Assembly: GCA_046598935.1 (NCBI GenBank)
Contig: JBKJHW010000088.1
Coordinates: 1 to 57,993 of the forward strand
Length of the DNA stretch: 57,993 nucleotides
Source: Vicinamibacterales bacterium
GTDB lineage: Bacteria; Acidobacteriota; Vicinamibacteria; Vicinamibacterales; SCN-69-37
Direction: 5' to 3'
The notes beneath the pieces were generated by a model. The model searched no databases. It was not told the DNA's origin and saw nothing but the letters and a program-made list of their open reading frames with translations. How positions within the stretch are numbered: position 1 is the first letter of the stretch; each line of letters starts with the position of its first letter. The translations under genes and the position numbers were made by a program. Of this stretch, positions 30,368-49,954 are shown piece by piece.

Positions 30368-31261
30368 GCGTTTTTCGACTTCCGGCACGGCGGCGACGAT
30401 GACGTCGCCGACGATCTGCAGACTCCGGGCGGAGACTTTGTCGATCGTGTCCTGGCCGGAGGTGTTGTGCCAGGCGGGGTAGTCGAGGTCGATGATGTCG
30501 GCCGACGGGATGCCGGCCGCGAGGAACGGCACGTGGTCGTCGGCGATCTCGGATGCCTCGTCCACGAACACCGCGCCGTAGCCCAGCGTTTTTGCCGCGG
30601 CCCAGATGACATCGACCAGCCACTTGGTCGACTGGCTCTCGCGCATGATCCGCAAATCTTTGTCGCCGACCATGTCGATGAGGATGTTCGCCTTGATTGA
30701 TGAGGTCGCGCCGGCCTTTTCCGCCGCTTGCACGTAGAAGCGGCTGCCGTAGGTGTTGTCGGGCGCGCCCGGTTTCCCGCACTCGTACCAGTCTTTGCAG
30801 AAGGCCTCTTCGCCGTCGAGCCAGACGAACTCGTAGGTAAACTCGCGCGCGCGGTCTGTGAAGACCCGCGCGAGCTCAATCAGCATCGCGGCGCTCGACG
30901 CGCCGTCACTGGCGCCGACAAACACAGAGTCCTTGATCAGCTTGGTGTCGTAGTGGCCGGTGAAGAGAATCCGCTCGGGCCGTTTGCCCGGCAGCCGGAC
31001 GATCAGATTGACCATCTCCACCTTGCCGACCGGCGTGTCGGCGACAAACGGCTGTTCCTCGACCTTGAGGCCGAGCGCGGTGATCTGACGCGTGATGTAC
31101 GCGCGCGTCTGGCGCAGTTGAGCCGACCCGGCGGGCCGTGGCCCGATGTTCACCATCGCCTGCAGGTGCGTCCACGCTTTGGCGCTATCGAACGGTGCCT
31201 GGGCGTCGAGGCAGGCGACGAAGCTGACGAGTGACAGAGCGAGAGCGGCGCAGCGTTTCAT
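30356..31261 (-). CDS. M28-family peptidase / glutaminyl cyclase-like, exported
   Basis: GHYDTK, GASDGAS, LDGEE, DMVG and DDHVPF motifs. Confidence 0.9.
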
Positions 31262-31467
31262 CGTTCGTCCCCACTGTCAAAATCCCCAATTTCCAAATTG
31301 CCGGACCCGGAATTCGCAATCCCGCGCTGATCAATTTCCGGTACGGCGTAGTCACCCTTCAGCCAGCGCCCGAGGTCCGCCATCTTGCAGCGTTCGCTGC
31401 AAAATGGCCGGTTCTGCTCGGTAGCAGGCTCAGCGCGGCAATAGACGCACCTGGCGGGGTCGGGCAT
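31258..31467 (-). CDS. yacG: DNA gyrase inhibitor YacG
   Basis: CVYC…[16 protein letters not shown]. Confidence 0.9.
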
Positions 31468-31476
31468 GTGTCGGCG

Positions 31477-32244
31477 CTATTTTACGCCCGCGCCCGTCTT
31501 CAGGAATTCGCCGATCTGCCGGCGGAGCTCTTCCTGGATCGTGTTGACCGACCGCTTGCTGTCGATCACCCGGAACCCGAACTCATCCGCCATCGAGGTG
31601 TATTCCTTGAGCAGGTTGCGCTGGTAGGCGCGGAAGCTCTCGTAGATGTCGTCCCCGGCTTTCATGTCCATGCCGGATTCCCAGTAGTCCATGCCGCCGC
31701 GTTCGAGCACGCGACGCGCGAGGGTGTCGGCGTCGATTTTCAAATAGAACGTCAGATGCGGCGCGATCGCAAAGCCGTAGATGTTGCGGATCCACTGGCG
31801 GTCGATGCCGCGAACACCGGCGCGCGCGATCGCCGTGAAAATGTAGCGATCGGCCAGCACGATGAAGCCCGCCTTGAGGGCCGGCACGATTTCCTTTTCG
31901 AGACGGTCCGCGAAGTCGCAGGCGTAGAGCAGTGTGAACGTCAGCTTGTTGAGCGTGTTGCTGGCCTTCGCCAGCTCGATTGTCGGCGCCATGAGCGGCG
32001 AGCGCGTCAACCCTGTTTCGATCACGCCGTAGCCCTGTACTTCGAGCCACTCGCGCAGCAGCGTAATCTGCGTCGTCCGGCCGATGCCGTCGGTGCCTTC
32101 GATCGCGATGAGCTTGCCCGGATAGTTGTCGATCGGCAGGTACGGCAGGCCATGCCCGTAATACGAGCCGGGTTTGACGCCGCCATGCGCGCCGCGCTCG
32201 ATCTCGGCGGTCGTCGCGTGTGACTGAACAGCTTCGAGGGCCAT
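31477..32244 (-). CDS. Thymidylate-kinase-fold protein, paralog 2, with variant P-loop GTDGIGRTT
   Basis: LIAIEGTDGIGRTT, ADRY and WESGMD motifs. Confidence 0.88.
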   Translation of the reverse strand: MALEAVQSHATTAEIERGAHGGVKPGSYYGHGLPYLPIDNYPGKLIAIEGTDGIGRTTQITLLREWLEVQGYGVIETGLTRSPLMAPTIELAKASNTLNKLTFTLLYACDFADRLEKEIVPALKAGFIVLADRYIFTAIARAGVRGIDRQWIRNIYGFAIAPHLTFYLKIDADTLARRVLERGGMDYWESGMDMKAGDDIYESFRAYQRNLLKEYTSMADEFGFRVIDSKRSVNTIQEELRRQIGEFLKTGAGVK

Positions 32245-32247
32245 TGC

Positions 32248-32952
32248 TTACTCCTTCACCTTGGAGGACGATTCGCCCTCGGACTCTTCGCCGGCCATCA
32301 CGCGCGATACCATTTCACGGAAGACGCGCTGCTGATCGGTGATGCTGCCGGACGCGTCGATCACGCTCAGCCCGAACTCCTTCACCTGTGCGTCGTATTC
32401 GTCGAGCACCTTGGTCTGGAACAGCCTGAAGCTCTCGACCGGGTTGTTGCTCCAGCCCATGTCCATGCCGGCCTCGTAAAACTTCAACTTCACGCGGCGC
32501 GCGAGCAGCCGGTCGAGCGAGACGTCGATCGGCACTTTGAAGTAGACGGCCAGGTCGGGCCGCACCGCAAAGCTGTAGAGATCGCGCACCCATTCGCGAT
32601 CGCAGCCGCGCGCGACGTCGCGGGCAAACGCCGTGTAGCTGTAGCGGTCGGCGAGGACGATCATGCCGGCTTTGAGCGGCGGCACGATGCGGTAGAGCAG
32701 CCGGTCGGCGAAGTCGGTCGCATGCAGCAGACTGAACGTCATCGGCGTCAGCGAGTTTTTCTTTTTGCCGGTCTTCGTCGCGGCCTTCACGAGAACGGAG
32801 GAATTCCACTCCGTCACGAAAACGCGGTGGCCGGCGGCGCTGAGCCACTTGGCCAGGAGCGCGAGCTGGGTCGTTTTACCTGACCCGTCGATGCCCTCGA
32901 CGACGAACAGTTTTCCGGGATACGTGTGCGGTGTGATGAGCGTGTTTAGCAT
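32248..32952 (-). CDS. Thymidylate-kinase-fold protein, paralog 1, with canonical P-loop
   Basis: VVEGIDGSGKTT, ADRY and YEAGMD motifs; ATG at 32952. Confidence 0.9.
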   Translation of the reverse strand: MLNTLITPHTYPGKLFVVEGIDGSGKTTQLALLAKWLSAAGHRVFVTEWNSSVLVKAATKTGKKKNSLTPMTFSLLHATDFADRLLYRIVPPLKAGMIVLADRYSYTAFARDVARGCDREWVRDLYSFAVRPDLAVYFKVPIDVSLDRLLARRVKLKFYEAGMDMGWSNNPVESFRLFQTKVLDEYDAQVKEFGLSVIDASGSITDQQRVFREMVSRVMAGEESEGESSSKVKE

Positions 32953-34549
32953 GCTTGCGTTTGCCTTTTCTCTTGACCCGGCCCTTCGGGGCCTTAACCT
33001 GACTCTTACCGGACGCGGGACGAACGTCAAATGTTATTGGGTGACCAATCAGTTCCGAGAGCACTGCGGCGTGCCGATCCGCCGCCCAGATCTCGAGTTC
33101 CGCGTCACCCGTGGTGCGGACCTCGATTTTCCAGGGCTTGCCGGGCTTTGTCGCCGCCTTCACCCGCAGGCGCGAGATCACCTGCGAGTGGCTGCGCTCG
33201 AGCCCTTCAGCCAGGCGAAGAATCGCGCCCAGCATCCGGACGGTCTCCCGCTCACGACCGGGCAGCGTGCTGAACCCGGCGTGAGAGCGTCGCGGCGGCG
33301 TCTGCCGATGGTACCGCGAAATCAGCGCGATGATCTCGATCTCGCGCGGCTCGAACCCGCGCAGCCCGCCGTTCTTGATCAGGTAATACGAATGCTTGTG
33401 ATGCCGTTCGTAGCTGATATGGATGCCGATGTCGTGCAGCAGCGATGCATATTCCAGCCACTCGCGCGCATCGGCGCCGAGCGAGTGCTGCGCGGTGGTC
33501 TGATCGAAGATCTGGAGCGCCAGCTTCGCCACTTGCCGCGAATGATCGGCGAGGTAATTGCACCGCTCGCCGAGCTCAACGACGCTGCGGCGCCGGACAT
33601 CAGGGTAGCGCTCGATCTGCTGGATGTGCGCGCGGTTCCGCTTGATGTAATCGAGGATCAGCCCCTCGCGCAACGCGTAGTCGCACAGCGTGATCTCATC
33701 CGCGCCGAGCTCTTCGACCAGTGTGTCGAGCAGCACCGCGCCGGCCACGGCCAAGTCGGCGCGCTTTGGATCGAGACCGGGCATCTTCAGCCGCTCCACG
33801 AGGGTCGTGCCGGTCAGTTGACGGCGAAGCCGATGGAGTGCCTTCGCGCTCACGCGCAGATTGCGGACGCCGTCTGGCGCCCGCCGGCCGCGCGCCAGTT
33901 CGCCGAGCGTCAGAATGGTGCCCGAGGTCCCGATCACGCGCTCGAATCCGGCCTTTCGAATCTTCCGGAGCGGCTCGTGCGCGTCCCGGCGGATCGCTTT
34001 CGTCATGCGCCGCTCGTCGCGGCGCGAGAGCGGATCCGTGCGGATGAACTTGTCGGCCAATCGGATGACACCGAGCTTGAAACTCTTGCCGACGTGCATG
34101 CGCGCGGCCGTCCCCTGCGTCACCTCGACGCTGCCGCCGCCAATGTCGATGACGACGCCGACCCGCGAGCCGATACCGGTGGCGTAGGCGGCGGCCAGGT
34201 GAATCAGGCGCGCTTCTTCGGATCCGGAAATCACCCGGACGCGAATGCCCGTCGTCCGCTGCACATCGGCGATGAAGTCGCCGCCGTTTCTCGATTCGCG
34301 CACGGCGCTCGTGGCGGTCGCAATGATCTCGTCGACGCCGCGTGACTCGGCGAGGCGCCGGAATTTGGCGAGCGTCTGCAATGCGTTCGCCATCGCGGTC
34401 TGGGTGAGCCGCCCGCCTTCGAGGCCTCCGGCACCGAGCCGGACCATGTCTTTTTCCCGATCCACGACCTCAAACGACAGGTCGGGACGCACACGCACGA
34501 CGATCATGTGCACGGAATTGGTCCCGATGTCGATGGCCGCAAGTTGCAT
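32876..34549 (-). CDS. ppx: Ppx/GppA exopolyphosphatase with HD domain and basic tail
   Basis: AIDIGTNS, ATSAVRE, DIGGGSVE, ALREG and LLHDIG motifs. Confidence 0.95.
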   Translation of the reverse strand: MQLAAIDIGTNSVHMIVVRVRPDLSFEVVDREKDMVRLGAGGLEGGRLTQTAMANALQTLAKFRRLAESRGVDEIIATATSAVRESRNGGDFIADVQRTTGIRVRVISGSEEARLIHLAAAYATGIGSRVGVVIDIGGGSVEVTQGTAARMHVGKSFKLGVIRLADKFIRTDPLSRRDERRMTKAIRRDAHEPLRKIRKAGFERVIGTSGTILTLGELARGRRAPDGVRNLRVSAKALHRLRRQLTGTTLVERLKMPGLDPKRADLAVAGAVLLDTLVEELGADEITLCDYALREGLILDYIKRNRAHIQQIERYPDVRRRSVVELGERCNYLADHSRQVAKLALQIFDQTTAQHSLGADAREWLEYASLLHDIGIHISYERHHKHSYYLIKNGGLRGFEPREIEIIALISRYHRQTPPRRSHAGFSTLPGRERETVRMLGAILRLAEGLERSHSQVISRLRVKAATKPGKPWKIEVRTTGDAELEIWAADRHAAVLSELIGHPITFDVRPASGKSQVKAPKGRVKRKGKRKHAKHAHHTAHVSRKTVRRRGHRRVR

Positions 34550-34560
34550 CGAATGTGTGC

Positions 34561-34576
34561 TTTACCGTGCTGTTAC
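34561..34576. promoter_or_regulatory. PHO-box-like 11-bp direct repeat between ppx and the CHAD gene
   Basis: TTTAC-cgtgct-GTTAC (GTAAC-N6-GTAAA on the minus strand). Confidence 0.5.
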
Positions 34577-34620
34577 GTCCAGAAGAGTCACAGTTGCGGC
34601 ATGCTAGCACGTGAGGTTTC

Positions 34621-35427
34621 ATGGACCTGTTGCACTTAGTGACACCCCGTGCCGACCGGCTCCTGTCGCACGTACGGGGAGCGCAGGATGGCGATGCGCG
34701 TCACACACATCAGGCGCGCGTATCGGCGCGCCGACTCGCGGAAGTGCTGGCCCTCACCGCAAACGCCGGCAAGCGGCTCGATCGCGACGTGCGCAGCCTG
34801 CGCCGGGCGCTCGGCGCGACACGCGAGCTGGACGTCGCGCGGATGATCTTCGATCAGGCGGCGCTCGCGCACACGTGGTCGAAGGACGCCGAAGCGCGGG
34901 TCCGCAAGTTCATCAGCCTCGAACGCGCGCGTCGCCACGACAAAGTCAAAGGCACGCTGGCGAACGTCAGCGTTTCGCGGCTGCGGCGCCGAATCCAGGA
35001 GGTCGGGGGGTATGCCGACGGCGTGCCCGCTCCGAAAGTGGCCGTTCGGATCCGGAAGAGAGTCACCGCGCGAGACAAGGAACTGGCCCAGGCCATCAAG
35101 CGGGCAGGCGCCACCTACAACATCGACAAGCTCCACGATGTCCGGCTTGCCGTGAAGAAGCTCCGGTATACGCTTGAGGTAGCGCAGGATGCCCTCGGCC
35201 GGCGCTGGACGAATCGGATCGCGGCCCTGAAAATCCAACAGGCGCGGCTCGGAGATCTCCACGACCTGCAAGTCCTGGTCGGGCACATCCGGGTGCTCGA
35301 GAGCGAACTGGTGGGCCACCGGGGCCCGGTGGCCGAAGCGCTGGCCGTAATCCGGCGCGACCTCGATGTCGAGTCGAGACGGTTGCACGGTCATTGGCTG
35401 AAACAGACGAAGACGAAAGGGATGTGA
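34621..35427 (+). CDS. CHAD-domain (polyphosphate-binding) protein
   Basis: HQARVSARRL, LGATRELDV, LHDVRLAVKKLRYTLE and LGDLHD motifs. Confidence 0.92.
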   Translation: MDLLHLVTPRADRLLSHVRGAQDGDARHTHQARVSARRLAEVLALTANAGKRLDRDVRSLRRALGATRELDVARMIFDQAALAHTWSKDAEARVRKFISLERARRHDKVKGTLANVSVSRLRRRIQEVGGYADGVPAPKVAVRIRKRVTARDKELAQAIKRAGATYNIDKLHDVRLAVKKLRYTLEVAQDALGRRWTNRIAALKIQQARLGDLHDLQVLVGHIRVLESELVGHRGPVAEALAVIRRDLDVESRRLHGHWLKQTKTKGM

Positions 35428-35930
35428 TGGTGCGCCTGTATCTGGTCCGGCACGCGATTGCGAGCGAGCGGGACGACACGAAGTGGCCTGACGACGACAA
35501 GCGTCCGCTGACGCACAAGGGCACGGCGCGCATGCGCGAGATCGTCCAGGGTCTTCAGGAGCTCGACGTCGACCTGGACCTCGTGATCACGAGCCCGTTG
35601 GTCCGGGCCAAGCAGACCGCCGACCTGATCCTCGCCGGATGGCCGGATGCCCCGGACCTGGTGGTGAACGACGCGTTGGCGCCCGCGGGCTCGCCCGCCG
35701 CCGTCGCTGAAGTGCTGTCGCGCCACACCAAGCTCAAGAACATTGCGCTGGTCGGCCATGAGCCGAACATGGGGGACCTGGCGGCGTTCCTCATTGGCGC
35801 CCGGGCGCCGTTGCCGTTCAAGAAGGGCGGCGTGGCCTGCATCGAAATGCCGACGCTGCCCGTGGTCGGGCCAGGCCAGCTGGCCTGGCACGCGACGCCC
35901 AAGATGCTGCGCGCGCTGGTCGATTTGTAG
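35427..35930 (+). CDS. sixA: Phosphohistidine phosphatase SixA
   Basis: LYLVRHA, RPLT, SPLVRAKQTA and LVGHEP motifs. Confidence 0.92.
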   Translation: MVRLYLVRHAIASERDDTKWPDDDKRPLTHKGTARMREIVQGLQELDVDLDLVITSPLVRAKQTADLILAGWPDAPDLVVNDALAPAGSPAAVAEVLSRHTKLKNIALVGHEPNMGDLAAFLIGARAPLPFKKGGVACIEMPTLPVVGPGQLAWHATPKMLRALVDL

Positions 35931-35953
35931 AGACGCTTCGGCGCTGTTGCGCG

Positions 35954-37210
35954 CTAGACGACGGTTCCGTTTTTCACAACGCCGCCTTTGGGCACAATGA
36001 TGATGCCCGAGCGGATGTGATACCCGTCGCCGTCGGCGTGCTGAATTCCCCGCTCGTTCACCAGCACCACGTCGTCGCCGATGCGCGCGTTCTTGTCGAC
36101 AATTACGCGGTCGAGCACGGCGTTCTTGCCGACGCCCATGGGGATGTCGCCGAAGGATTCCTCGTAAAAGTCGGCGCCAAGCAGCACGGATCTCGAGATC
36201 TTCGCGTTCGGCCGCACGACAGTGCGGATGCCGACGACGGAGTTCGCAATGGCGCAGTCGTTGTCGATGTAGCAGCCCTCCGAGATCAGCGTTTCTTCGA
36301 TCACACTTTTATGGATCTGCGTGGCCGGCAGAAAGCGCGGCCGCGTATAGATCGGGCGTGTCGGATGGAAGAAATTAAACGGGGCGCCGTGCTGCGTGAG
36401 CATCAGGTTCGCGTCGTAGAAGGACGACACTGTTCCGACGTCGGCCCAATAGCCGTTGTAGAGGTGCGCGTTCACGCGATGCGATGAGAGCGCGTGCGGG
36501 ATGATCTCGCGGCCGAAGTCGATGGCGCGGTCGCGCGCGAGCACCTCGTGCAGGACATCGCGCGAGAACACATAGATGCCCATTGACGCGATGAACGGCT
36601 TGTCGGCGGTCATGTGGCGCGTGAGCGGCCCGGCCGGCACGCTCGTGCGCATTTCGCCGAGCCGCGCGGGCGAGGGCTTCTCGTCGAATCCGGAAATGTG
36701 GCCGCCGCCGTCAAACCGGAAAATGCCCATCTGCGTCGCGTCGTCTGGCGTCACGGGTTGCGCGGCGATGGTGATGTCGGCGCCGCGCTCGATGTGCGCG
36801 TTGATCAGCTCGGCGAAGTCCATGCGGAAGATGTGATCGCCGGCAAGGATCAGGTAGTACTCGGCGTCGGCCTGGCCGAAGTGTCGGGTCGCCTGGCGCA
36901 CGGCGTCGGCCGTGCCCTGGAACCACTGTTCGCCCTCCGGAGTTTGCTCGGCCGCGATGACTTCGACGAATCCGCTGGAGAACAGATCGAGCCGGTACGT
37001 TTGGGAGATGTGGCGGTTCAACGACGCCGAGTTGAACTGCGTCAGGATATAAATTCGCTTCAGTCCCGCGTGGAGGCAGTTGCTGATCGGGATGTCGATC
37101 AGGCGGTACTTGCCGCCGATCGGGACGGCGGGCTTGGATCTCAGATGCGTCAGCGGGAAGAGGCGCGTGCCGCGCCCTCCGCCGAGGATGATCGTCAGAA
37201 CGTCGTTCAC
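35954..37210 (-). CDS. glgC: Glucose-1-phosphate adenylyltransferase
   Basis: GGGRGTRLFPLT..RSKPAVPIGGKYRLID, WFQGTADAV and ASMGIY motifs. Confidence 0.97.
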   Translation of the reverse strand: MNDVLTIILGGGRGTRLFPLTHLRSKPAVPIGGKYRLIDIPISNCLHAGLKRIYILTQFNSASLNRHISQTYRLDLFSSGFVEVIAAEQTPEGEQWFQGTADAVRQATRHFGQADAEYYLILAGDHIFRMDFAELINAHIERGADITIAAQPVTPDDATQMGIFRFDGGGHISGFDEKPSPARLGEMRTSVPAGPLTRHMTADKPFIASMGIYVFSRDVLHEVLARDRAIDFGREIIPHALSSHRVNAHLYNGYWADVGTVSSFYDANLMLTQHGAPFNFFHPTRPIYTRPRFLPATQIHKSVIEETLISEGCYIDNDCAIANSVVGIRTVVRPNAKISRSVLLGADFYEESFGDIPMGVGKNAVLDRVIVDKNARIGDDVVLVNERGIQHADGDGYHIRSGIIIVPKGGVVKNGTVV

Positions 37211-37893
37211 GGAGGGATTCTATTCGAGGCGGCTGGCCGCAGCCAGCGCGTCGCCGCAAATCCGGATGCTGTGCCAACGATTTGCGCCATGAGAAATGGC
37301 GCCACGTCGATCGGGCGGATTCCGGCAAATGAGTCTGTGAAGGCCCGGGCGATCGTGACGGCCGGATTCGCGAAGGATGTCGACGACGTGAACCAGTAGG
37401 CGGAAGCGATGTAGGCGCCAACCGCCACGGCCGAAGCGGCCTGGCTCACTCGCGAGGCTCCAGCGATAACAATCAACAAGCCGAATGTGGCGACGCCTTC
37501 GGAAAACCACAGCGCCCATCCACTGCGGGCATCCGATGAAACCTGCAGAACGGGTACGCCGAACATCACGTGCGCGACAACAATACCCGCGAGGCCGCCG
37601 GCGACTTGCGCGAGGACGTACGCCATCAGCTCTCGCGCCGGCAGCCGCCCGCTGAGAAACTCCGACAGGCTCACGGCCGGATTGAACTGCGCGGAGATGT
37701 CGCCGAACGCAAAAATCAAGGCGGCGAGCACGGCGCCGGTCGCGAGGCTGTTGGCCAAGAGGACCATGCCGATGTTCCCCGCAAACAGCCGGCCGGCCAT
37801 GATTCCGGAGCCGACCACACAACAGACGAGGAGCGCCGTGCCGACACCCTCGGCCGTCACCCGGCGGGAAAGCGTTGCCGCTGTGTGCGTCAT
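37207..37893 (-). CDS. MIP/aquaporin-family channel of the arsenic-associated type
   Basis: Two NPA motifs; AYWFTSSTSFANPAVT; directly follows arsC. Confidence 0.9.
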   Translation of the reverse strand: MTHTAATLSRRVTAEGVGTALLVCCVVGSGIMAGRLFAGNIGMVLLANSLATGAVLAALIFAFGDISAQFNPAVSLSEFLSGRLPARELMAYVLAQVAGGLAGIVVAHVMFGVPVLQVSSDARSGWALWFSEGVATFGLLIVIAGASRVSQAASAVAVGAYIASAYWFTSSTSFANPAVTIARAFTDSFAGIRPIDVAPFLMAQIVGTASGFAATRWLRPAASNRIPP

Positions 37894-38336
37894 GCTTGTG
37901 TTGGGTGCGGCGAGAGCTTCGCCTGAACATCGGGCCGCGCGAGCCAGGCGATGAGGCGCTCATTAATTTGCGTCGCAACTGCTTCGAACGTGGCGCGCAG
38001 CACAGTGTCGCTCGCCGCGGCCGGATCTTCAAAGCTCCAGCGAATGCGCTCGGAACGGCCGGGAAAGACCGGGCAAGTTTCAGCGGCGTGATCGCACACG
38101 GTGATCACATAGTCGAAATGCCGGCCGGCGAACTGATCCACGTTCTTCGGAAACTGTCCGGCCATGTTGAGACCGAACAGCCGCAACGCCGTTTCGCGAG
38201 CGAGAGGATGAATCTCCGGTTGTGGGTGCGTCCCTGCACTGGCGATGTCGGCGGTGCCGTTCGTCAGGTGTCGCAAGATCGCTTCCGCCATCTGGGATCG
38301 CGCGGAGTTTCCGGTGCAAAGAATCAGGACTCTCAT
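37890..38336 (-). CDS. arsC: Arsenate reductase (LMW-PTP fold, thioredoxin-coupled type)
   Basis: CTGNSARSQMAE, VITVCDHAAETCP and FEDP motifs. Confidence 0.9.
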   Translation of the reverse strand: MRVLILCTGNSARSQMAEAILRHLTNGTADIASAGTHPQPEIHPLARETALRLFGLNMAGQFPKNVDQFAGRHFDYVITVCDHAAETCPVFPGRSERIRWSFEDPAAASDTVLRATFEAVATQINERLIAWLARPDVQAKLSPHPTQA

Positions 38337-38386
38337 AGGGTCAGGCTGTGGCGCCCATCGTAGCGCGTGAGGGGGACCGCCAGCCG

Positions 38387-38881
38387 CTATTCGACGAAGC
38401 GGTATCCGAGGCCGACGACTGTTTCGATCGGCGAACCGGCGGCGCCGAGCTTGGCTCGCAGGCGGCCGACGTGGACATCGACCGAACGGGTCTCGACCTC
38501 GCGGTCGTAGCCCCATACCCGCTCAAGGAGGCGGTCCCGGGACATCACCCGGTTTCGGTTCTCGACGAGGAATTTCAGCAGTTCGAATTCGCGGCGGGTG
38601 AGTTTGATGCGTTCGGCGTCCACGCTGACCGCCACTGCGTCGAAGTCCGCCCGAAGGTGTTTCCCTTCGTAGACCGCCGCGGCGCCGTCGTCGGCTAGGT
38701 TCAGGTCCAGGATGAGCAGGTCTGGGGCTGAATCGTTGACCGCCTTCAGGGCCTCGTCGCCGGAACCGACGATGCTGACCTCGGCGTTTCCGGCGCGTTC
38801 CAGAGTGTGTTTAATGAGGCCGGCGATGTCGGATTCGTCCTCAAGGACCCGGATACGGGTGGGTGCGGGCACGAGCGCCAC
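38387..38881 (-). pseudogene. PhoB/OmpR-family regulator with an in-frame deletion of about 70 aa in the receiver
   Basis: …DLLILDLNL joins directly to ADDGAAAVYEG…; intact wHTH (LTRREFELL, TRSVDVHVGRLRAKL, VGLGYRF). Confidence 0.8.
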
Positions 38882-38906
38882 AGTAGGGCGGCCAAATTGC
38901 CCGCCC

Positions 38907-38982
38907 GTAACGGCGCGGTTAATTCGCGGTTACTTCGCGTACGTTAGAGCACAGTGGCGGGGATGTAACAACCGTGTAAACT
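38907..38982. promoter_or_regulatory. PHO-box-like repeats in the divergent promoter region
   Basis: GTAAC-N6-GTTAA-N6-GTTAC at 38907-38933 and GTAAC-N6-GTAAA at 38965-38980. Confidence 0.65.
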
Positions 38983-38991
38983 TTCCGGCAT

Positions 38992-39615
38992 ATGGGCTTC
39001 CGATTCAGTCTGGTTCCGCGAGACGAGCAGTTCTTCGATCTATTCAAGCAAATGGCCGAGGAGATCAAGCGCGCCGCGTGCGACCTCGAGGCGCTGCTCT
39101 CGACCAATCCTCCGGACACCTCGAAGGTTGATGCGATCAGAGACGCCGAGCATCGCTGCGACACGATTACACACGACACTATCCAGCGCCTGCACAGGAC
39201 GTTCGTCACGCCGTTCGACCGCGAAGATCTCTACACGCTCGCCGCGTCGATGGACAACGTCATGGACGCCATCGATCACGCGGCGTCGTTGGTGAGGTTG
39301 TACAAGATCCGCGAGATGCCGCGCGGCGCGGTCGACCTGTCTCACACGGTGACCGCGTCGGCGACCTCGATGGCCGCCGCGATCGAAGCCCTCAGCGCGC
39401 AGCGCCCGGTGACGCCGCACGCCGTCGAAGTGAACCGCCTCGAGAATGAAGCCGATCGCACCTACGCCGAGTCGATCGAGTTTCTCTTCGACACCGTGAC
39501 GGACCCGATTCTGCTGATGAAGTGGAAGGAGCTGCTCGATCAGCTTGAGAACGTCACCGACAAATGCGAGGACGTCGCGAACGTCATCGAGAGCGTCGTT
39601 GTGAAGTACAGCTAG
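38992..39615 (+). CDS. DUF47 / PhoU-like Pit accessory protein
   Basis: EHRCD, TFVTPFDRED, LENEAD and DKCEDVA motifs. Confidence 0.93.
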   Translation: MGFRFSLVPRDEQFFDLFKQMAEEIKRAACDLEALLSTNPPDTSKVDAIRDAEHRCDTITHDTIQRLHRTFVTPFDREDLYTLAASMDNVMDAIDHAASLVRLYKIREMPRGAVDLSHTVTASATSMAAAIEALSAQRPVTPHAVEVNRLENEADRTYAESIEFLFDTVTDPILLMKWKELLDQLENVTDKCEDVANVIESVVVKYS

Positions 39616-39617
39616 CC

Positions 39618-40622
39618 GTGACGCTCGACGCCACACTCATCACGGTCAGCGTCGTCATATTCGTCGCGCTGGTCTTCGATTTCATCAACGGCTTCCACGA
39701 CGCCGCCAATTCGATCGCGACCGTCGTCACGACTCGCGTGCTGTCGCCGGCGCAAGCGGTGATCTGGGCCGCGTTCTTCAACTTCATCGCCGCGTTCTTT
39801 TTCGGCACGGCTGTCGCCAAGACGGTCGGCAAGGGCATGGTCGACCTCGAAATCGTGACCTTCAGCGTGATCCTCGCCGGCCTGCTCGGCGCGATCATCT
39901 GGAACCTGATCACCTGGTATTTCGGCCTGCCGACCAGCTCGTCGCATGCGCTGTTCGGCGGCTACGGTGGCGCCGCAGTGGCAAAGGCCGGTTTCAGCGC
40001 CATCATCGTCTCCGGCTGGACCAAAACACTCATCTTCATCGTCGTGGCGCCGATGGTCGGCTTGCTGGTCGGCTTGCTGCTGATGACAGCGATCTACTGG
40101 GTATTCCGTGACACGACACCGACACGCGTCGATCGGTGGTTTCGGCGCATGCAACTGGTATCGGCGGCGGCCTTCAGCATGATGCACGGCGCCAATGACG
40201 CGCAGAAAACGATGGGCATCATTACTGGCGCGCTCGTGACCGGCGGCTACATCGCGACGTTCGAGGTTCATTGGTGGGTGATTCTCGCGGCCCACGGCGC
40301 CATCGCGCTTGGCACCCTCAGCGGCGGCTGGCGCATCATCAAAACGATGGGCTCGAAGATCACGCGCCTGCGTCCCGAGAGCGGCTTCGCTGCCGAGACC
40401 GGCGCGGCGGTTGCCATCTACACGGCGACCGCGCTGGGCGTTGGCATCAGCACCACCCATACGATCACCGGTGCGATCGTCGGCGTTGGGGCCACGCGCC
40501 GCATGTCGGCGGTGCGCTGGAGCGTTGCCGGCCAGATCGTCTGGGCGTGGGTGCTCACCATTCCGGCGGCGGCCACGATCGGCGCGATCTCGTACTACAT
40601 CGTCTCGCAGGTCATCCGCTGA
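39618..40622 (+). CDS. pit: Inorganic phosphate transporter (PiT family)
   Basis: NGFHDAANSIAT, HGANDAQK, PTSSSH and ISTTH motifs. Confidence 0.95.
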   Translation: MTLDATLITVSVVIFVALVFDFINGFHDAANSIATVVTTRVLSPAQAVIWAAFFNFIAAFFFGTAVAKTVGKGMVDLEIVTFSVILAGLLGAIIWNLITWYFGLPTSSSHALFGGYGGAAVAKAGFSAIIVSGWTKTLIFIVVAPMVGLLVGLLLMTAIYWVFRDTTPTRVDRWFRRMQLVSAAAFSMMHGANDAQKTMGIITGALVTGGYIATFEVHWWVILAAHGAIALGTLSGGWRIIKTMGSKITRLRPESGFAAETGAAVAIYTATALGVGISTTHTITGAIVGVGATRRMSAVRWSVAGQIVWAWVLTIPAAATIGAISYYIVSQVIR

Positions 40623-40630
40623 TGTCACAT

Positions 40631-40646
40631 TTAACGTGCTCGTAAC
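40631..40646 (+). promoter_or_regulatory. PHO-box-like repeat upstream of pstB-phoU
   Basis: TTAAC-gtgctc-GTAAC; -10-like TACGAT at 40679. Confidence 0.55.
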
Positions 40647-40693
40647 ATGCTGGAATTCGGCGCGATACACGCACTTTCTACGATTGACCGTGA

Positions 40694-41530
40694 GTGCATA
40701 TCTCTGAAGTTGACGAGCCCGTCACCGGGACCAAGGTGACCTCCGCGCCGGACGCCGGTGTCCAGCCCGCAGACGCCGTGGCCGTGGACGTCCAGAATCT
40801 GAATTTTTATTACGGGACGAAGCAAGCCCTGTTCGACATTTCCATGCAGATCCGTCCCCGCGTGGTGACGGCGTTCATCGGACCATCCGGTTGCGGGAAG
40901 AGCACCTTCCTGCGCACGTTGAACCGGATGAATGACGTCATCCCCGGTGTGCGGCTCACGGGGAGCGTGCGGATCAATGGGATGGATGTCTACGGGCCGA
41001 CGTCCGACGTCGTCGAGCTGCGCCGGCGTGTCGGGATGGTCTTTCAAAAGTCCAATCCGTTTCCGAAATCGATTTTTGAGAATGTCGCGTACGGCCTCCG
41101 GATCAACGGGATGGCCGGTACCCGGCAGGAACTCGCCGGGCGTGTTGAAGAAAGCCTCAAGTCGGCAGCGATCTGGGACGAGGTGAAAGATCGCTTGTCG
41201 TCGTCGGCGTTAGGGCTCTCGGGCGGGCAGCAGCAGCGGCTCTGCATCGCGCGGGCCCTTGCCGTTCGTCCCGAGATCCTGTTGATGGACGAACCGGCGT
41301 CGGCGCTCGATCCGATCGCCACGCAGCGGATCGAGGAGCTGATCTACCAGCTCAAAAAGCAGTACACGATCGTCATCGTGACGCATAACATGCAGCAAGC
41401 GGCTCGTGTGTCGGATGCGACCGCCTTTTTCTGGCTCGGCAAGATGCTCGAGTTCGGGCCGACCGATAAACTTTTCACCAATCCGGCAAATAAATTGACG
41501 GAGGACTACGTGACCGGGCGCTTCGGCTAG
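40694..41530 (+). CDS. pstB: Phosphate ABC transporter ATPase (copy 1)
   Basis: [28 protein letters not shown] and [10 protein letters not shown] motifs. Confidence 0.96.
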
Positions 41531-41549
41531 CCAGGGCGCAGAGGGACCT

Positions 41550-42218
41550 ATGGAACACGCGACGCATTTCCAGGAAGAGTTGAACGAGTTGAAGCGGCGG
41601 TTGCTCGAAATGGGCGGCCTTGCTGAGGATCGTCTGCGCCTGTCTGTGAAGGGCCTGGTTCAGCGCGACAGTTCGCTCTTCGAGCGTGTGCTGACCGGCG
41701 ACGGCGACATCAACAACCTCCACCTCGAAATCGACGACCGGTGCGTGAAGCTGCTTGCGCTCCACCAGCCGATGGCGATGGACCTCCGCGCAATCGTCGC
41801 CGCCGTCAAGATTAATTCGGACCTCGAGCGCGTTGGGGATTTATCCGTGAATATTGCAGAGGCCGGCACGCGGTATCTGCAGCATCCGCCTGTCAAGGAA
41901 TTGATCGACATTCCGAGGATGGCTGACATCGCGCAGGGGATGCTCCGCGATTCGCTCGACTCGTTCGTTCGCCGCGATATCCCGTTGGCTCAGTCAGTGC
42001 TGGTCGCTGACGACAACCTGGACGCGCTCAAGGGTCAAGTCTTCCGGGATTTGTTGACGTACATGCTGAACGACGCGACCACCGTGCCCGCGTCACTGGA
42101 TCTGATTCTGATTTCCAGACATCTCGAACGCGTCGGCGACCACGCGACAAACGTCGCGGAGGACGTCATTTTCATGGTGTCGGCGCAGGACGTGCGCCAC
42201 GTGAAGGCCTCAAGCTAG
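41550..42218 (+). CDS. phoU: Phosphate signalling protein PhoU
   Basis: QPMAMDLR, DLERVGD and LERVGDHATNVAE motifs. Confidence 0.96.
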   Translation: MEHATHFQEELNELKRRLLEMGGLAEDRLRLSVKGLVQRDSSLFERVLTGDGDINNLHLEIDDRCVKLLALHQPMAMDLRAIVAAVKINSDLERVGDLSVNIAEAGTRYLQHPPVKELIDIPRMADIAQGMLRDSLDSFVRRDIPLAQSVLVADDNLDALKGQVFRDLLTYMLNDATTVPASLDLILISRHLERVGDHATNVAEDVIFMVSAQDVRHVKASS

Positions 42219-42224
42219 GCGCAA

Positions 42225-43064
42225 CTAACCGAAACGGCCGGTGATGTAGTCCTCGGTGTGCTTCACCTTCGGGCTGGTGAATATCTCGGCTGTCTTGGAG
42301 AACTCAATCAGTTTGCCCATGAAGAAGAACGCCGTCTGATCCGACACGCGCGCCGCCTGCTGCAGGTTGTGCGTCACGATGACGATCGTGTACTGAGACT
42401 TCAAATCCTGAATCAGTTCTTCGATTTTCTGTGTCGCGATCGGATCGAGCGCCGAGCACGGCTCGTCCATCAGGATGATCTCCGGCTCAGTCGCGATAGC
42501 GCGCGCGATGCACAGGCGCTGCTGTTGACCGCCCGACAGGGCCAGGCCGCTCGTCTGCGCGCGATCCTTCATCTCGTCCCACAGCGCCGCACCGCGCAAC
42601 GCGCGTTCGAATGCCGCATCCAGCACAGGCTTCTCGCGAATCCCGGCGACGCGAAGCCCGTAGACCACGTTTTCGTAGATCGACTTCGGCAGGGGATTGG
42701 ATTTCTGGAAGACCATGCCGGTCCGCCGGCGGACATCGATCACGTCGGTCTTGGGCGCGTAGATGTTGCGTCCGTCAATGATGAACTGACCCTCGATGCG
42801 CACGTTGTCGATGAGGTCGTTCATCCGATTGAGGCAGCGGAGCAGCGTCGACTTGCCGCAGCCTGACGGGCCGATGAACGCCGTGACCTGTTTGTCCGGG
42901 AGGTCCATCGAGACGTCATGAATCGCCTGCTTCTGGCCATACCAGACGTTGGCATCCTGAATCTGAATGGCCGGCGGCGCGCCGCTCGCCGTCGTCTCGA
43001 CGAACGACACGTCCGTCTTGACGCGCAAGCGATCGGTATGTTCGGGGCGGGTCTCGGAGCTCAT
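42225..43064 (-). CDS. pstB: Phosphate ABC transporter ATPase (copy 2)
   Basis: [26 protein letters not shown] and [10 protein letters not shown] motifs. Confidence 0.96.
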
Positions 43065-43074
43065 GATCGACAGG

Positions 43075-44718
43075 TCAAAAGGCCGACGTCAGGTACTTCT
43101 TGCGCAGACGGTTGCGCACCACGATGGCGGTGAGGTTCAGGAGGACGACGATGATCAGGAGCAGAATTGATGTGGCGTACACCATCGGGATGGCCGCCTC
43201 GACGTTTGGGCTCTGAAAGCCGACGTCGTAGATGTGGAACCCGAGGTGCATGAACTTTCGATCGAGATGCAGATAGGGAAAGACCGTGTCGAGCGGCAGA
43301 TCCGGGGCGAGCTTCACGACACCGGTGATCATCAGCGGCGCAACCTCGCCGGCGCCGCGTGCCATCGCAAGAATCAGGCCCGTCAGGATGCCGGGCGCTG
43401 CCGACGGGATCACCACGCGGGTCAGCGTCTGAAAGGTCGTCGCGCCTGTCGCGAGGGAAGCCTCGCGCATCGAACGCGGCACGGCGGTCAAGGCTTCCTC
43501 GGTCGCCACGATGACAACGGGCACGGTGAGCAGGCCCAGCGTCAGCGATGCCCAGAGAATTCCACCGGTGCCGAACGTCGGCGTCGGCAGACTCTCCGGG
43601 AAGAACATCCGGTCGATGCCCACGACCACGAAGTACACGAAGAAGCCGAGGCCGAATACGCCGAAGACAATTGACGGCACGCCGGCGAGATTGTTGACCG
43701 CGATGCGCACGAGCCGGACGAAGAAACCCTGCTTGGCGTACTCGCGCAAGTAGAGCGCCGCCAGCACGCCGAAGGGGACGGCGACGACGCTCATGATCAG
43801 GACCATCATCACGGTGCCGAAGATGGCGGGCAGAATCCCGCCCTCCGTGTTCGATTCTCGCGGGTCGCTGCTCAGGAACTCCCAGAGACGGCTCCCGTAC
43901 ACGCCGGCGCGTTCCCCCCATGACAACTGGTTGGCGGGGTACGCACGGAAGATGTCGAGGACGGCCATGTCCTTCTCTGTGCCGTCGCCTGCGAGAAACG
44001 AGACGCGCATCTTTGACGCGGCATCGACCGTCTGCGTCATCTGCGCCTCGAGCGCCTGGTACCTGGCCTGGAACTCAGCGGTTTTGGCTTCGAGCGCGGC
44101 ACGCCGTGAGGCGATATCGGTGCCCGGCGACTTCTGCGCTTCGAGATCGAGCGCGCGCATGTCGAGGCGGCTTTGCTCGATGCGAGAGTTCATCGTGCCG
44201 AGCTCGTCGCGCTCGAGCTTGCGAATCGCGGCGCGATCGTCCTCGGCCTTGTCGACAAGATCGCTGAGCCGCGCGATCACGTCGTTGCCCGTGGCGATCA
44301 CGGCGTCGCCATCTTTGAGCGTGCCCGGGCGGCCGATGAATGGGCCGTATTCGCGCCGTTCAATGTAGAGCGCGTCGGCCGGCCTCGTGCGGCTCGCCAT
44401 CGTGTCTTCGTCGACCCAGCGGAAATCCGCGCCGGTCAGATCCCGGTTGCCGAGCTTCATCTGCGCGCGGAAGCGCTTGAGATGTTCGGGTGTGCCGGGC
44501 GCTGGAATCGGCTCACGGTCGGAGATCTCCCCCATAAGTACAGTGCCGTCGGTCAGCGTGATCTGCTCGATCTGTCGCGGCCAGAAGAACCCGAGGCCGT
44601 TGCTGAGAATGAGCGCGATCATGCCGGTGATCATGAGCAGGCAGATGCCGAGCCCGCTGCCGGCGAGCCAGATCGCGGAGTCGCCGCGGCGCATCGGGTC
44701 GCGTTTAAAGAGCGCCAT
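43075..44718 (-). CDS. pstA: Phosphate ABC permease PstA, long form with a coiled-coil periplasmic domain
   Basis: [29 protein letters not shown] and [10 protein letters not shown] motifs. Confidence 0.95.
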
Positions 44719-46982
44719 CAGACGGCCTTGTACTTTTCGCGAAGGTGCTGGCGGATCACTTCCGCCACCGTGTTGATCACAAACGTCATGACGAAGAGCA
44801 GCGCGGCCGCCAGAAACAGCGTGCGGTAGAGCGTGCTCGCGTGCGGGGCTTCAGGGATCTCGACCGCGATGTTGGCTGACAGCGTCCGGATCCCGTTGAA
44901 GATCGACCAGTCCATGACCGGCGTATTTCCGGTCGCCATCAATACGATCATCGTCTCGCCGACGGCGCGGCCGAAGCCGATCATGACCGCCGAAAATATC
45001 CCGGGGCTGGCCGTCGGCAGGACGACGCGGACGGCCGTTTGCCACCGACTGGCCCCGAGCGCCAGCGACGCGGCCGTCAGGCTCGATGGCACGCCGGAGA
45101 ATGCGTCTTCGGAAATCGTGAAGATAATCGGGATCACGGCAAAGCCCATGGCGATGCCGACGACGAGGCAGTTGCGCTGATCGTAGGTGAGGTCGAGCGC
45201 TTGCTTGAGCCACAGCCGCGCGTCTGCGTCGAAGAGCCACGCCTCGACCGACGGGCCGATCGCCAACGCGAGCCATCCGGCAAACACAAGGAGCGGCAGA
45301 ATCAACAGGACTTCAGTGCCGGCGCGAAGATTGGCGGTCACGCGCCGGGGGAGCAGGCGCCACAGGAACACGCCTGATGTGCCGGCGAGCGGCATGAGTG
45401 GAATTAAAAGGAGCACGGCTACGAGATTTTTTTCGACGACCGCCGCCAGGTAGAGGCCCGCAAGAAAGCCGATCACGACGCTCGGCAACGCCGCCATGAT
45501 TTCGACGGCGGGCTTGACCTTGGCGCGGTAGAGCGGGTCCATGAACTGCGACGTGTAGAGCGCCGCCAGCACCGCGAGCGGCACGGCAAACAACATCGCG
45601 TAGACCGTGCCCTTGATCGTGCCGAAGATCAGCGGCACGAGGCTGAACTTCGCCTCGAAGTCGTCGGTCGCACCGGTCGACTGCCACACGTATTCCGGCT
45701 TCGCGTAGCCCTCGTACCATACTTTGCCGAAGAGCGTCTTCCAGCTCGTCTCCGGGTGCGGGTTATCGAGCGTGAACCGGCGGAGGTTGTTGCCGGTCAG
45801 CATCAGGATCGCGTCAGCTTTCGGCGTGATCAGCACGGCCGTGATACCGCCGTTGGCGGGTTGCCGTAGCAGGACGCGCTCGGACGTCTGGTGGCGCAGC
45901 ACAAGTTCGCCGTCCTGGCCGATCGTCGCGAAACTCCGCTCACGTCCGGAGAGCGCGATGGCGGTCACCGCCGAAGACTGCGGCTCGAAGACATGGGCGC
46001 GCACCATGGCGGATTCGTTCTCCGTGCCGACGGGCACGGCCATCCAACCTGACAGCGTGCCGTCGGCGGCGCCGGCCGTCCACGAGTTGCCGCCCAGCAT
46101 CCATTCCAGCGAGGTGATGGCTCTCGGACTGACGGGCGAGACGCTCGTGAGCACGGGCGATTCCGCGTCGCCAAGATGCCAGAAGTAGACGCGCCCACGA
46201 TCCGTGCCCGCCAGCAACGCGCCGCTCTGTCCCATCCGGATATGCGTCACCTGGTCGGGCGAATCAACTCGCAGCATCGCCGTGTGCGGCACGAGCTGGT
46301 CGTCGGCCGACGCGTAGACGATGTCGCCGCCTTCGTCGCCGCCTTCGAGGAGCCCGGCGACAAAACGCCGTTCGTCCTGTTCGATGTACGAAACCTGGCC
46401 GACCGGGCGCCGAGCGGCGTCGAGCGTGAGGGTGCCGCGCGGACGCAGTTCGATCGTGAGGTCTTTCAACACCGAGCCGTCGTACTGCGGCACGTAATGC
46501 ACTTGCATGAGCGACACGCGGCCGTCGCTGAGACCGGCGGCGAGGTAGTGGCCCGTGACGCTGCGCGACGATGAGATGACCGTGGCCGCGCCGAGGTCCG
46601 GCACCGGCAGCGAGGTCACCGCCGCGCCCGTCTGCACGTTGCGAAAGACCACCTGGCCGTCGGCTTCAATGCTGTAGAGATACTTCTGATACTCGTCGAC
46701 GCCCACCGCCCGCAGCGACGCGCCCGCCGTGGAACCGATCGCAACTTCTCCAGCGGGAATCAGTCGCGCCGACCGGAAGAGCGGAATGGCCTCGCTCGCG
46801 ACAAAGACCAGGATGCCCATCACCGCAACAACGACCGCGATGCCGCCGGCGGAAATGACAAACACGGCCGCACGGTCCACGCGCTTCAACCGCGCGATTC
46901 GCTTCCGCGCGGAGGCCATGTGAGCCCGGACTGATGAAGTCGAGGGCGCCGGGGACTGGGCCGAGGATTCGGGAGGGGCCAT
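44718..46982 (-). CDS. pstC: Phosphate ABC permease PstC, long form with a beta-propeller-like domain
   Basis: WYEGYAKPEYVWQST, KPAVEIMAALPSV and GRAVGETMIVLMATGN motifs. Confidence 0.93.
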   Translation of the reverse strand: MAPPESSAQSPAPSTSSVRAHMASARKRIARLKRVDRAAVFVISAGGIAVVVAVMGILVFVASEAIPLFRSARLIPAGEVAIGSTAGASLRAVGVDEYQKYLYSIEADGQVVFRNVQTGAAVTSLPVPDLGAATVISSSRSVTGHYLAAGLSDGRVSLMQVHYVPQYDGSVLKDLTIELRPRGTLTLDAARRPVGQVSYIEQDERRFVAGLLEGGDEGGDIVYASADDQLVPHTAMLRVDSPDQVTHIRMGQSGALLAGTDRGRVYFWHLGDAESPVLTSVSPVSPRAITSLEWMLGGNSWTAGAADGTLSGWMAVPVGTENESAMVRAHVFEPQSSAVTAIALSGRERSFATIGQDGELVLRHQTSERVLLRQPANGGITAVLITPKADAILMLTGNNLRRFTLDNPHPETSWKTLFGKVWYEGYAKPEYVWQSTGATDDFEAKFSLVPLIFGTIKGTVYAMLFAVPLAVLAALYTSQFMDPLYRAKVKPAVEIMAALPSVVIGFLAGLYLAAVVEKNLVAVLLLIPLMPLAGTSGVFLWRLLPRRVTANLRAGTEVLLILPLLVFAGWLALAIGPSVEAWLFDADARLWLKQALDLTYDQRNCLVVGIAMGFAVIPIIFTISEDAFSGVPSSLTAASLALGASRWQTAVRVVLPTASPGIFSAVMIGFGRAVGETMIVLMATGNTPVMDWSIFNGIRTLSANIAVEIPEAPHASTLYRTLFLAAALLFVMTFVINTVAEVIRQHLREKYKAV

Positions 46983-47014
46983 GTGGGGGTGTGTGGGGTG
47001 GGTTCACAGAGTGA

Positions 47015-47042
47015 CAGGCCGATGGCTCCCGCCACCGGCCTG
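47015..47042 (-). terminator. Stem-loop between pstS and pstC (partial terminator or mRNA stabiliser)
   Basis: caggccgatggc-tccc-gccaccggcctg. Confidence 0.5.
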
Positions 47043-47077
47043 AATGTTGTTAACAGTAAGCGTCCGGACGATCGCGG

Positions 47078-48082: not shown

Positions 48083-48137
48083 CGGCTCGTCTCAAATCCA
48101 CGATACCGGGGTCGAAAATCGTCTGGATTGCGCCCTT

Positions 48138-48153
48138 GTTAAATCCCTGTAAC
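48138..48153 (-). promoter_or_regulatory. PHO-box-like repeat upstream of pstS
   Basis: GTTAA-atccct-GTAAC, 11-bp period. Confidence 0.45.
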
Positions 48154-48154
48154 T

Positions 48155-49567: not shown

Positions 49568-49625
49568 GTCTCTAAAGCCTCCTGCGGGGGAGTCCCGCGA
49601 TGTGGGTGAAGGCTATCGGCCCCGT

Positions 49626-49695
49626 GTTACCGCCCTGTCGCAGGCCCGTTTCCGCGGAGTTAATTCGTTACACGTCGCGTTTACACGGAATTTAC
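49626..49695 (-). promoter_or_regulatory. Array of PHO-box-like half sites upstream of the porin-pst operon
   Basis: GTTAC/GTCGC/GTTTC/GTTAA at 11-bp period from 49626; TTTAC-N6-TTTAC at 49680-49695. Confidence 0.6.
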
Positions 49696-49747
49696 CTGGC
49701 CGCTGCGGGTAATCGGACAGAATCAAGTCACTGCCCCGGGAGCCTGT

Positions 49748-49954
49748 ATGACCACCACAACAAAACACGACGACGCCACCGCCATTTCTCACGATAGAAA
49801 AGTCAGCGTCGTCCGCCAGCCGGTCGGCTGGGAAGTCCGCGAAGAGGAAGGCCAGAATATTTTGCGGTCGGTGACGGTCACTGATTGGCACCGCGTCGAG
49901 CGCGCGGTCCTGGCGTTCGCGCACAGCGCGCAGCCGGTTTCCGCGGCGCGCTAA
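49748..49954 (+). CDS. Small hypothetical protein (GWEVREE…DWHRVER)
   Basis: Fills the intergenic gap; GGAG upstream; protein-like composition. Confidence 0.6.

Follow-up and report, generated by a model that had tools for sequence, protein, structure and literature searches.

What are two adjacent genes of thymidylate kinase (TMK) fold doing directly behind the exopolyphosphatase gene ppx of a soil bacterium? The question is raised by a contig of a Vicinamibacterales bacterium (phylum Acidobacteriota; GenBank assembly GCA_046598935.1, contig JBKJHW010000088.1), analysed over a stretch of 57,993 nucleotides that we call the window. Its genes A and B encode the TMK-fold paralogues, and genes for a CHAD-domain protein and a SixA-type phosphatase diverge from ppx. 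A preliminary description, made from the letters alone, took this for an uncharacterised polyphosphate (polyP) module and proposed that the pair is not the housekeeping tmk but an active plus regulatory heterodimer, moving phosphate between polyP and nucleotides or acting on a signalling nucleotide. Judged by its sequence relationships, the pair is orthologous to the catalytic (c) and regulatory (r) subunits of the heteromeric polyphosphate kinase PPK3. We consider the locus very probably a family-3 polyphosphate kinase module, with ppx, cPPK3 and rPPK3 on one strand and CHAD-sixA divergent.

The module is not uncharacterised, because PPK3 had been published as a preprint in 2024 (10.1101/2024.08.28.610084) and then by Hofmann et al. 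(J Biol Chem 2026, PMC12995831); statements attributed here to these two sources refer to their main texts. In Sulfolobus acidocaldarius, the operon sixA-ppx-saci_2019-saci_2020-CHAD (saci_2017-2021) encodes the heteromeric enzyme. Saci_2019 (cPPK3) synthesises polyP from ATP and also runs the reverse reaction, from ADP and polyP to ATP, at a far higher rate, SaPPK3 being about 50-fold faster toward ATP formation; Saci_2020 (rPPK3) is inactive alone in every assay, brings an approximately tenfold gain in activity at 1:1 and forms an alpha2beta2 complex with its partner. Neither protein has dTMP kinase activity, the true dTMP kinase being a third gene elsewhere in the genome, and the proposed role of the enzyme is that of an ATP-regenerating "emergency buffer" (PMC12995831). 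Since this operon has been published with polyphosphate kinase activity, the idea of an active plus regulatory pair matches a published system, and the window holds a bacterial copy of it. In bacteria, operons neighboured by PPX, SixA, CHAD and Pst genes have also been reported (PMC12995831), and the preprint counts Acidobacteriota as belonging to the "only few bacterial homologues". Older uses of the name PPK3 appear to refer to a PPK2-type enzyme.

The genome (2.94 Mb in 143 contigs, 93.2% complete) has a third PF02223 gene, adjoining lysA on another contig (C97, 39588-40121), that scores 104.5 bits against 85.2 for B and 74.5 for A; a Pfam scan of the two window proteins gave 84.8 and 74 bits, respectively. 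The statement that the pair is not the housekeeping tmk is thus borne out. A separate canonical tmk likewise occurs in all five of the other pair-bearing Acidobacteriota genomes checked and in five of five from other phyla. Neither window protein matches the PPK2 family PF03976 at E up to 0.01. Among solved structures, both are closest to 2plr/5h70: A at 180.9 bits (E 2.4e-52), with the next match at 54.2 bits, and B at 152.4 bits, with the best canonical Tmk at 63.6. These structures belong to STK_15430/st1543 of Sulfurisphaera tokodaii (PDB 2plr, 4nzy, 4rzx, 5h70), a protein deposited as a dTMP kinase and re-read in PMC12995831 as a cPPK3 homologue. The model of B (mean predicted local distance difference test score, pLDDT, 86.9) also has st1543 chains as its best fold matches, with target-normalised TM scores of 0.88-0.92 and 38-40% identity. 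However, st1543 is a c-type subunit solved without an r partner, and the window r differs from it at the P-loop Lys and lacks a basic patch.

Profile hidden Markov models of the two subunits, built without the window rows, separate them cleanly. The window c reaches 341.7 bits with its own profile and 226.4 with that of r; the window r reaches 327.3 bits with its own and 240.6 with that of c. Sulfolobaceae-type r proteins reach 135-167 bits on the r profile versus 83-110 on the c profile, and canonical tmk products reach 47-66 bits on either. The main tree (IQ-TREE) had 87 rows, comprising 30 c/r pairs from many phyla and Acidobacteriota, the window pair, six Sulfolobaceae-type pairs, eight representatives and five canonical tmk rows. 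It splits the 82 PPK3 rows from the five canonical ones with support of 100/97, which sets the pair apart from canonical Tmk as the preliminary description had supposed. All 37 downstream partners, including the window r and the six Sulfolobaceae-type r, form one clade (100/98; present in all 200 bootstrap trees). The c rows are an unresolved comb, and the upstream gene of the pair groups with catalytic cPPK3. A first tree, for which a motif filter dropped 54 of 148 rows (among them seven r rows with P-loop DSSGR and one truncated canonical row), gave the same split between PPK3 and canonical tmk at a Shimodaira-Hasegawa approximate likelihood ratio of 95. P0171 and P0185, two proteins provisionally counted as archaeal r, carry NKY at the DRY position, and the main tree places them outside the r clade.

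Could the pair nonetheless be an ordinary or back-up kinase for dTMP or another nucleoside monophosphate that lies next to ppx by chance? Canonical Tmk (PF02223, TIGR00041) resembles the pair in fold, P-loop, DRX motif and lid architecture; both window proteins pass PF02223, source databases name their homologues "dTMP kinase", and B, at 89.6 bits, exceeds the TIGR00041 equivalog cut-off of 83.25 bits, which A, at 78.3, does not reach. B nevertheless lies outside the canonical clade, the separate tmk is the better-scoring gene (96.8 bits on TIGR00041), and the segment after strand 2 differs, the canonical REPGG being replaced by EWNSS in c and GLTRS in r. Together with a gene neighbourhood unlike that of canonical tmk, a linkage to ppx, SixA and CHAD conserved over many phyla, and the lack of dTMP kinase activity in Saci_2019 and Saci_2020 (PMC12995831), this makes a dTMP kinase very improbable, and we reject it. 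As TIGR00041 accepts the r subunit, automatic annotation will keep naming rPPK3 a dTMP kinase.

That the substrate of the pair might be a signalling nucleotide, such as one related to (p)ppGpp, is a proposal that starts from the ability of Ppx/GppA-family enzymes to hydrolyse pppGpp. That family ambiguity is all that speaks for it in our data, and the ppx product scores 210.9 bits on the GppA model NF008260, far below the cut-off of 624 bits; it is best classified as an exopolyphosphatase (TIGR03706, 262.1 bits). The CHAD gene and the pst/pho neighbourhood point to polyP, and the characterised orthologue uses ATP/ADP and polyP (PMC12995831). We find this alternative scarcely credible and reject it as well, and the analysis thus gave no support to that half of the original proposal, whereas the half concerning polyP and nucleotides gains support from the apparent c/r orthology.

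Coordinates of the PPK3 module are listed in Table 1 with those of the neighbouring Pho cluster. The PPK3 pair follows the arrangement given in the preliminary description: the 5' part of gene A and the 3' end of ppx share at least 77 nt, gene B starts 3 nt past the stop codon of A, and CHAD-sixA runs divergently from ppx. The longest open reading frame of A extends to 33030, with an ATG start at 32952. A and B share 93 of 210 aligned residues (44% identity), and the E[AS]GMD motif noted in both (YEAGMD in A, WESGMD in B) is family-wide. The ppx product matches PF02541 (200.2 bits) and PF21447 (109.2 bits), and in profile searches of the contigs ppx was the sole Ppx-GppA match, and the CHAD gene the sole CHAD match, in the genome. 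In the C-terminus of Ppx (window 32876-33110, minus strand), the last 45 or so residues form a highly basic tail with many K, R and H. The DNA encoding this tail is where ppx overlaps the beginning of the c gene, and close relatives have the same overlap (L038).

Table 1. Features of the putative PPK3 module and its surroundings (positions within the window)
Feature	Position	Strand	Remarks
rPPK3-type subunit (gene B)	31477-32244	-	TMK fold; P-loop GTDGIGRTT; DRY kept; N-terminal YYGHGLP extension
cPPK3-type catalytic subunit (gene A)	32248-32952 (from ATG)	-	P-loop GIDGSGKTT; EWNSS; basic patch KTGKKK; DRY; YEAGMD
ppx, exopolyphosphatase, 557 aa	32876-34549	-	Ppx-GppA + domain III + HD
Spacer ppx/CHAD, 71 bp, divergent promoter region	34550-34620	.	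No convincing Pho box
CHAD-domain protein (polyP-granule-associated family)	34621-35427	+	PF05235, 91.9 bits
sixA, SixA-type histidine phosphatase	35394-35930	+	TIGR00249, 84.6 bits (cut-off 74.5); PF00300
Pho cluster	38387-51720		Response regulator, PhoU_div, PHO4, PstB, PhoU, PstB, PstA, PstC, PstS, porin O/P, histidine kinase

How far the pair and its linkage extend was examined in a sample of 301 Acidobacteriota genomes, using matches to B at E up to 1e-20. Matches occur in 48 genomes, 45 of which (window genome included) have two adjacent matches; the remaining three have one weak match each, at 35-38% identity. G152, among the 45, carries an unpublished flag. With the window proteins as queries, 40 loci were taken from 39 of the 44 other pair-bearing genomes (all but G152, G102, G233, G253 and G294). 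The order is c then r on one strand in 40/40, and within 7 kb there is a ppx gene in 29, SixA in nine and CHAD in six. Beyond the phylum, a c-type alignment run against species genomes hit at least 596 stretches, with 507 confirmed relatives among the matches listed. The best 80 loci come from archaea (Nitrososphaerales, Nitrosopumilales, Thermoplasmata and Methanoliparum) and from Acidobacteriota, Verrucomicrobiota, Planctomycetota, Chloroflexota, Bacteroidota, Nitrospirota, Sumerlaeota, Armatimonadota, Binatus, Thermodesulfobacteriota and others. In 76 of these 80, r lies directly downstream of c; three of the other four run into a contig end or stop close to one, and in the fourth r is spread over three frames. 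The same 80 loci have ppx (within 7 kb) in 53 cases, SixA in 32, CHAD in seven and PPK2 in six. A profile search of 1.84 billion representatives returned 571 proteins at E up to 1e-30, and of 8000 scored 90% clusters 7801 match B at E up to 1e-10, most of them under the name "dTMP kinase". The PPK3 family reaches many bacterial phyla.

Several homologues are parts of larger proteins. A 794-aa eukaryotic protein from the protist Ancoracysta twista (EukProt; P0166) combines a partial SPX domain, a c-type PPK3 domain and DUF2252, its c-type domain carrying GSGKST, RWNSS, DRY and YYEAGLD and scoring 192+55 bits on the c profile. SPX domains regulate polyP synthesis in eukaryotes. Neither SPX nor DUF2252 is mentioned in the main text of PMC12995831. 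Among proteins from metagenome contigs, P0176, P0179, P0203, P0224 and P0232 (1030-1276 aa), P0199, P0219 and P0170 fuse a c-type PPK3 domain to either an MFS transporter plus an APH/DUF2252 kinase-like region or an inorganic pyrophosphatase domain; P0170 (2575 aa) has an additional ADP-ribosyltransferase domain of polyvalent proteins. Three single chains of 650-696 aa (P0126, P0144 from Ignavibacteria, and P0152) join c, r and Ppx domain III/HD. In P0121 from Alicyclobacillaceae (460 aa), c and r are fused, the r half lacking a recognisable P-loop that contains Lys or Arg.

The regulatory subunit departs from the published picture. In PMC12995831, replacement of the DRX arginine of rPPK3 is given as the reason for its inactivity; this feature is absent from the window r, which has DRY. 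Alignment columns over 116 r sequences (bacterial and non-Sulfolobaceae archaeal) and 120 c sequences give the wider pattern. The P-loop residue is Arg in 116/116 r and Lys in 120/120 c, and the DRX motif is DRY (113) or DRF (3) throughout r and DRY or DRF in 120/120 c. After strand 2, c has EWNSS in 111/120, and r is varied, GLKRS being commonest (39/116). The basic patch, K/R-rich throughout c, is absent from r. The c motifs overall are conserved in 111-120 of the 120 c sequences, and bacterial r have an N-terminal [FY][YF]G.[GP][LI]P stretch. DGY was seen only in the Sulfolobaceae-type r, sampled at six loci (L181 and L184 being left out): all six have DGY, the P-loop residue is Arg in three and Lys in three, and in the tree they group within the r clade, on a long branch (1.37). 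Replacement of the DRX arginine is accordingly a trait of the Sulfolobaceae, not of the family as a whole. Because DRY and the P-loop Arg extend across r and the DGY form is nested within it, alignment and tree suggest that the ancestral r likely had a P-loop Arg with DRY intact and that the characterised Sulfolobus r is derived. The P-loop Lys-to-Arg change receives no mention in the main texts of PMC12995831 or the preprint, though supplementary figures or data may show it; both this ancestral state and the wide bacterial spread go beyond the published main text.

A kept DRY invites the thought that bacterial r, with its Arg P-loop, DRY and lid, has a working pocket, so that the enzyme would have two functional sites. 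Outside the Sulfolobaceae, r would then be a ligand-binding or catalytic partner whose site performs a second phosphotransfer, or senses ATP/ADP or holds the polyP end and thereby sets the direction of the reaction. The P-loop Arg and DR[YF] are each present in 116/116 r, and the invariant r positions are the active-site positions common with c (P-loop Gly/Asp, D110, D132-R133, R141, R178, E189-G191 and Q208). The Sulfolobaceae-type r with DGY has its P-loop residue unfixed, which fits a constraint on Arg only while the pocket is intact, and r is 72-79% identical across relatives of the same order. Yet r lacks the EWNSS motif and the basic patch of c, Saci_2020 was inactive in every assay (PMC12995831), and this conservation could serve folding and the interface alone. 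Moreover, Walker A Lys-to-Arg changes in P-loop enzymes usually cripple phosphoryl transfer. On balance we think a working r pocket rather unlikely; if it were true, the published explanation of r inactivity would be valid only for the derived Sulfolobaceae branch.

The preferred reading, in which r would be a silent partner of c, was also approached through structure prediction of the pair as a complex. A 1:1 model of c and r reached an interface score (ipSAE) of 0.67 as the median of three runs, against 0.00 for the best of three controls; of 80 solved complexes 58 reach this mark, as do two of 110 mismatched pairs. At least 91% of contacts recur between the runs, partner pLDDT is at least 81, and the N-terminal stretch of r (residues 31-35) touches c residues 67-72, next to the basic patch. 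The prediction lends tentative support to binding of c and r to each other, as the heterodimer proposal supposed.

By orthology with the Sulfolobus enzyme, c would be the catalyst: with ATP or ADP bound at the P-loop and polyP in a basic cleft, it would pass the terminal phosphate from one to the other in either direction; the window c has GSGKTT, DRY and KTGKKK, that is, the P-loop Lys, the DRX Arg and positive residues for polyP. At a high ATP/ADP ratio it would build polyP, and at a low ratio regenerate ATP from it. The r subunit would bind c and raise its activity through oligomerisation, presumably as alpha2beta2 as in Sulfolobus, while Ppx would degrade polyP and the CHAD protein would sit on it, with SixA also part of the module.

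Among known systems, SaPPK3 is the closest to the module. The five gene families of the module are those of saci_2017-2021, ppx is followed at once by two TMK-fold paralogues (c first, r second), SixA and CHAD belong to the module, and a separate canonical tmk lies elsewhere. In both, c has the P-loop Lys, DRY and the basic patch, and the r subunits fall in one clade; for the window pair, the model predicts a c-r complex. Unlike Sulfolobus, the window host is a mesophilic soil bacterium that also has PPK2, its CHAD-sixA genes are divergent instead of flanking the kinase genes, and c and r are 44% identical, compared with 22-38% in the preprint (10.1101/2024.08.28.610084). The window r keeps DRY, the invariant P-loop Arg and the N-terminal [FY][YF]G.[GP][LI]P extension, which Sulfolobaceae-type r lacks. 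Two-domain class II PPK2 enzymes, such as PA3455 of Pseudomonas aeruginosa, offer a parallel as described in PMC12995831, an active P-loop kinase unit being paired with an inactive paralogous oligomerisation unit, but they belong to the PPK2 fold family, not to TMK, and their units are fused and not encoded by separate genes as in the window.

What, then, might a PPK3 do in a bacterium of this kind? PPK1 was found in 169 of the 301 Acidobacteriota genomes, two of these carrying an unpublished flag, but in only 6/45 pair-bearing genomes versus 163/256 others; PPK2 is present in 35/43 pair-bearing genomes. In Acidobacteriota, PPK3 thus goes with the absence of PPK1 and not with that of PPK2. The preliminary description had expected an anti-correlation with both, of which the ppk1 part stands and the ppk2 part fails. 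The pattern also departs from PMC12995831, according to which both PPK1 and PPK2 are missing from most PPK3 genomes. In the window genome itself, PPK1 was not found at 93.2% completeness, and a profile search found neither ppk1 nor ppk2 on the window contig, as had been noted; yet two PPK2 genes lie on other contigs (369.5 and 217.6 bits), one a clear TIGR03707 member. These observations allow a reading in which PPK3 in these bacteria mainly replaces PPK1 as polyP synthesiser while PPK2 runs the conversion of polyP to NTP, in contrast to the proposed "emergency buffer" role in Sulfolobus. The PPK1 and PPK2 counts and the gene complement of the window genome favour it, as do the PPK1-like neighbourhood of PPK3 and the in situ replacement suggested in PMC12995831. 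Against it stand the much faster ATP-forming direction of SaPPK3 (PMC12995831), the ability of PPK2 to make polyP as well, the reliance on absences drawn from draft genomes, and the relatedness of the genomes, whereby few independent events may underlie the counts. We hold this replacement to be plausible, at slightly less than even chances.

Several points weigh against a PPK3 module as we have described it. Activity is transferred from one archaeal enzyme, to which c is about 50% identical and r far less. The window r keeps DRY, whereas the published argument for inactivity rests on loss of the DRX arginine, and that explanation of r inactivity consequently does not transfer. The modelled c-r interface is the classical Tmk dimer face, with helices near c residues 54-86 and 115-128, so the passing model may reflect memory of solved Tmk homodimers. 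The two PPK2 genes run counter to the published "neither PPK1 nor PPK2" in most PPK3 genomes (PMC12995831), and given their presence PPK3 need not be the sole polyP kinase of the cell. Finally, the genomes are related and many are drafts, and the counts therefore overstate independence.

The remaining claim of the preliminary description, a PHO-like repeat between ppx and CHAD, failed. The 71-bp spacer holds only GTGCTTTACC/GTGCTGTTAC, an imperfect 10-nt tandem matching at 8/10 positions; a repeat-finding program detected no direct repeat in it, and the tandem motif is not kept at the same spacer of four related loci. A Pho box at this place is accordingly rejected. A promoter and terminator scan of 31100-36100 gave one promoter-like and four terminator-like sites, not above shuffled sequences. 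The sequencing runs listed as containing the stretch are soil metagenome DNA, with no RNA run among them. The CHAD-ppx spacers of four loci (L038, L039, L040 and L149) have CATGGTAGGAT at the CHAD start codon in common, as well as a TATAT-rich box about 60-70 nt beyond the CHAD start; the window has neither CATGGTAGGAT nor the box.

The large Pho cluster said to border the module is indeed present, across a gap of about 2.5 kb. Its OmpR/PhoB-type response regulator (38387-38881, minus strand) is only 164 aa long, the receiver covering just profile positions 3-59 of 111 and being followed directly by the winged helix, as if an in-frame deletion had removed the latter half of the receiver. Between glgC and the Pho cluster, at 37207-38516 (minus strand), are a MIP-family channel and a low-molecular-weight phosphatase of an ArsC-like family, perhaps a pair with an arsenate-related function next to the phosphate genes.

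In summary, the window carries a bacterial copy of a known archaeal system, and databases still label both of its subunits dTMP kinase. The motif state of r and the bacterial spread of the family bear on how PPK3 is regulated. Should PPK3 have taken over from PPK1, polyP turnover in soil Acidobacteriota and many uncultured phyla would use PPK3 rather than PPK1, and surveys restricted to ppk1 and ppk2 would miss it.

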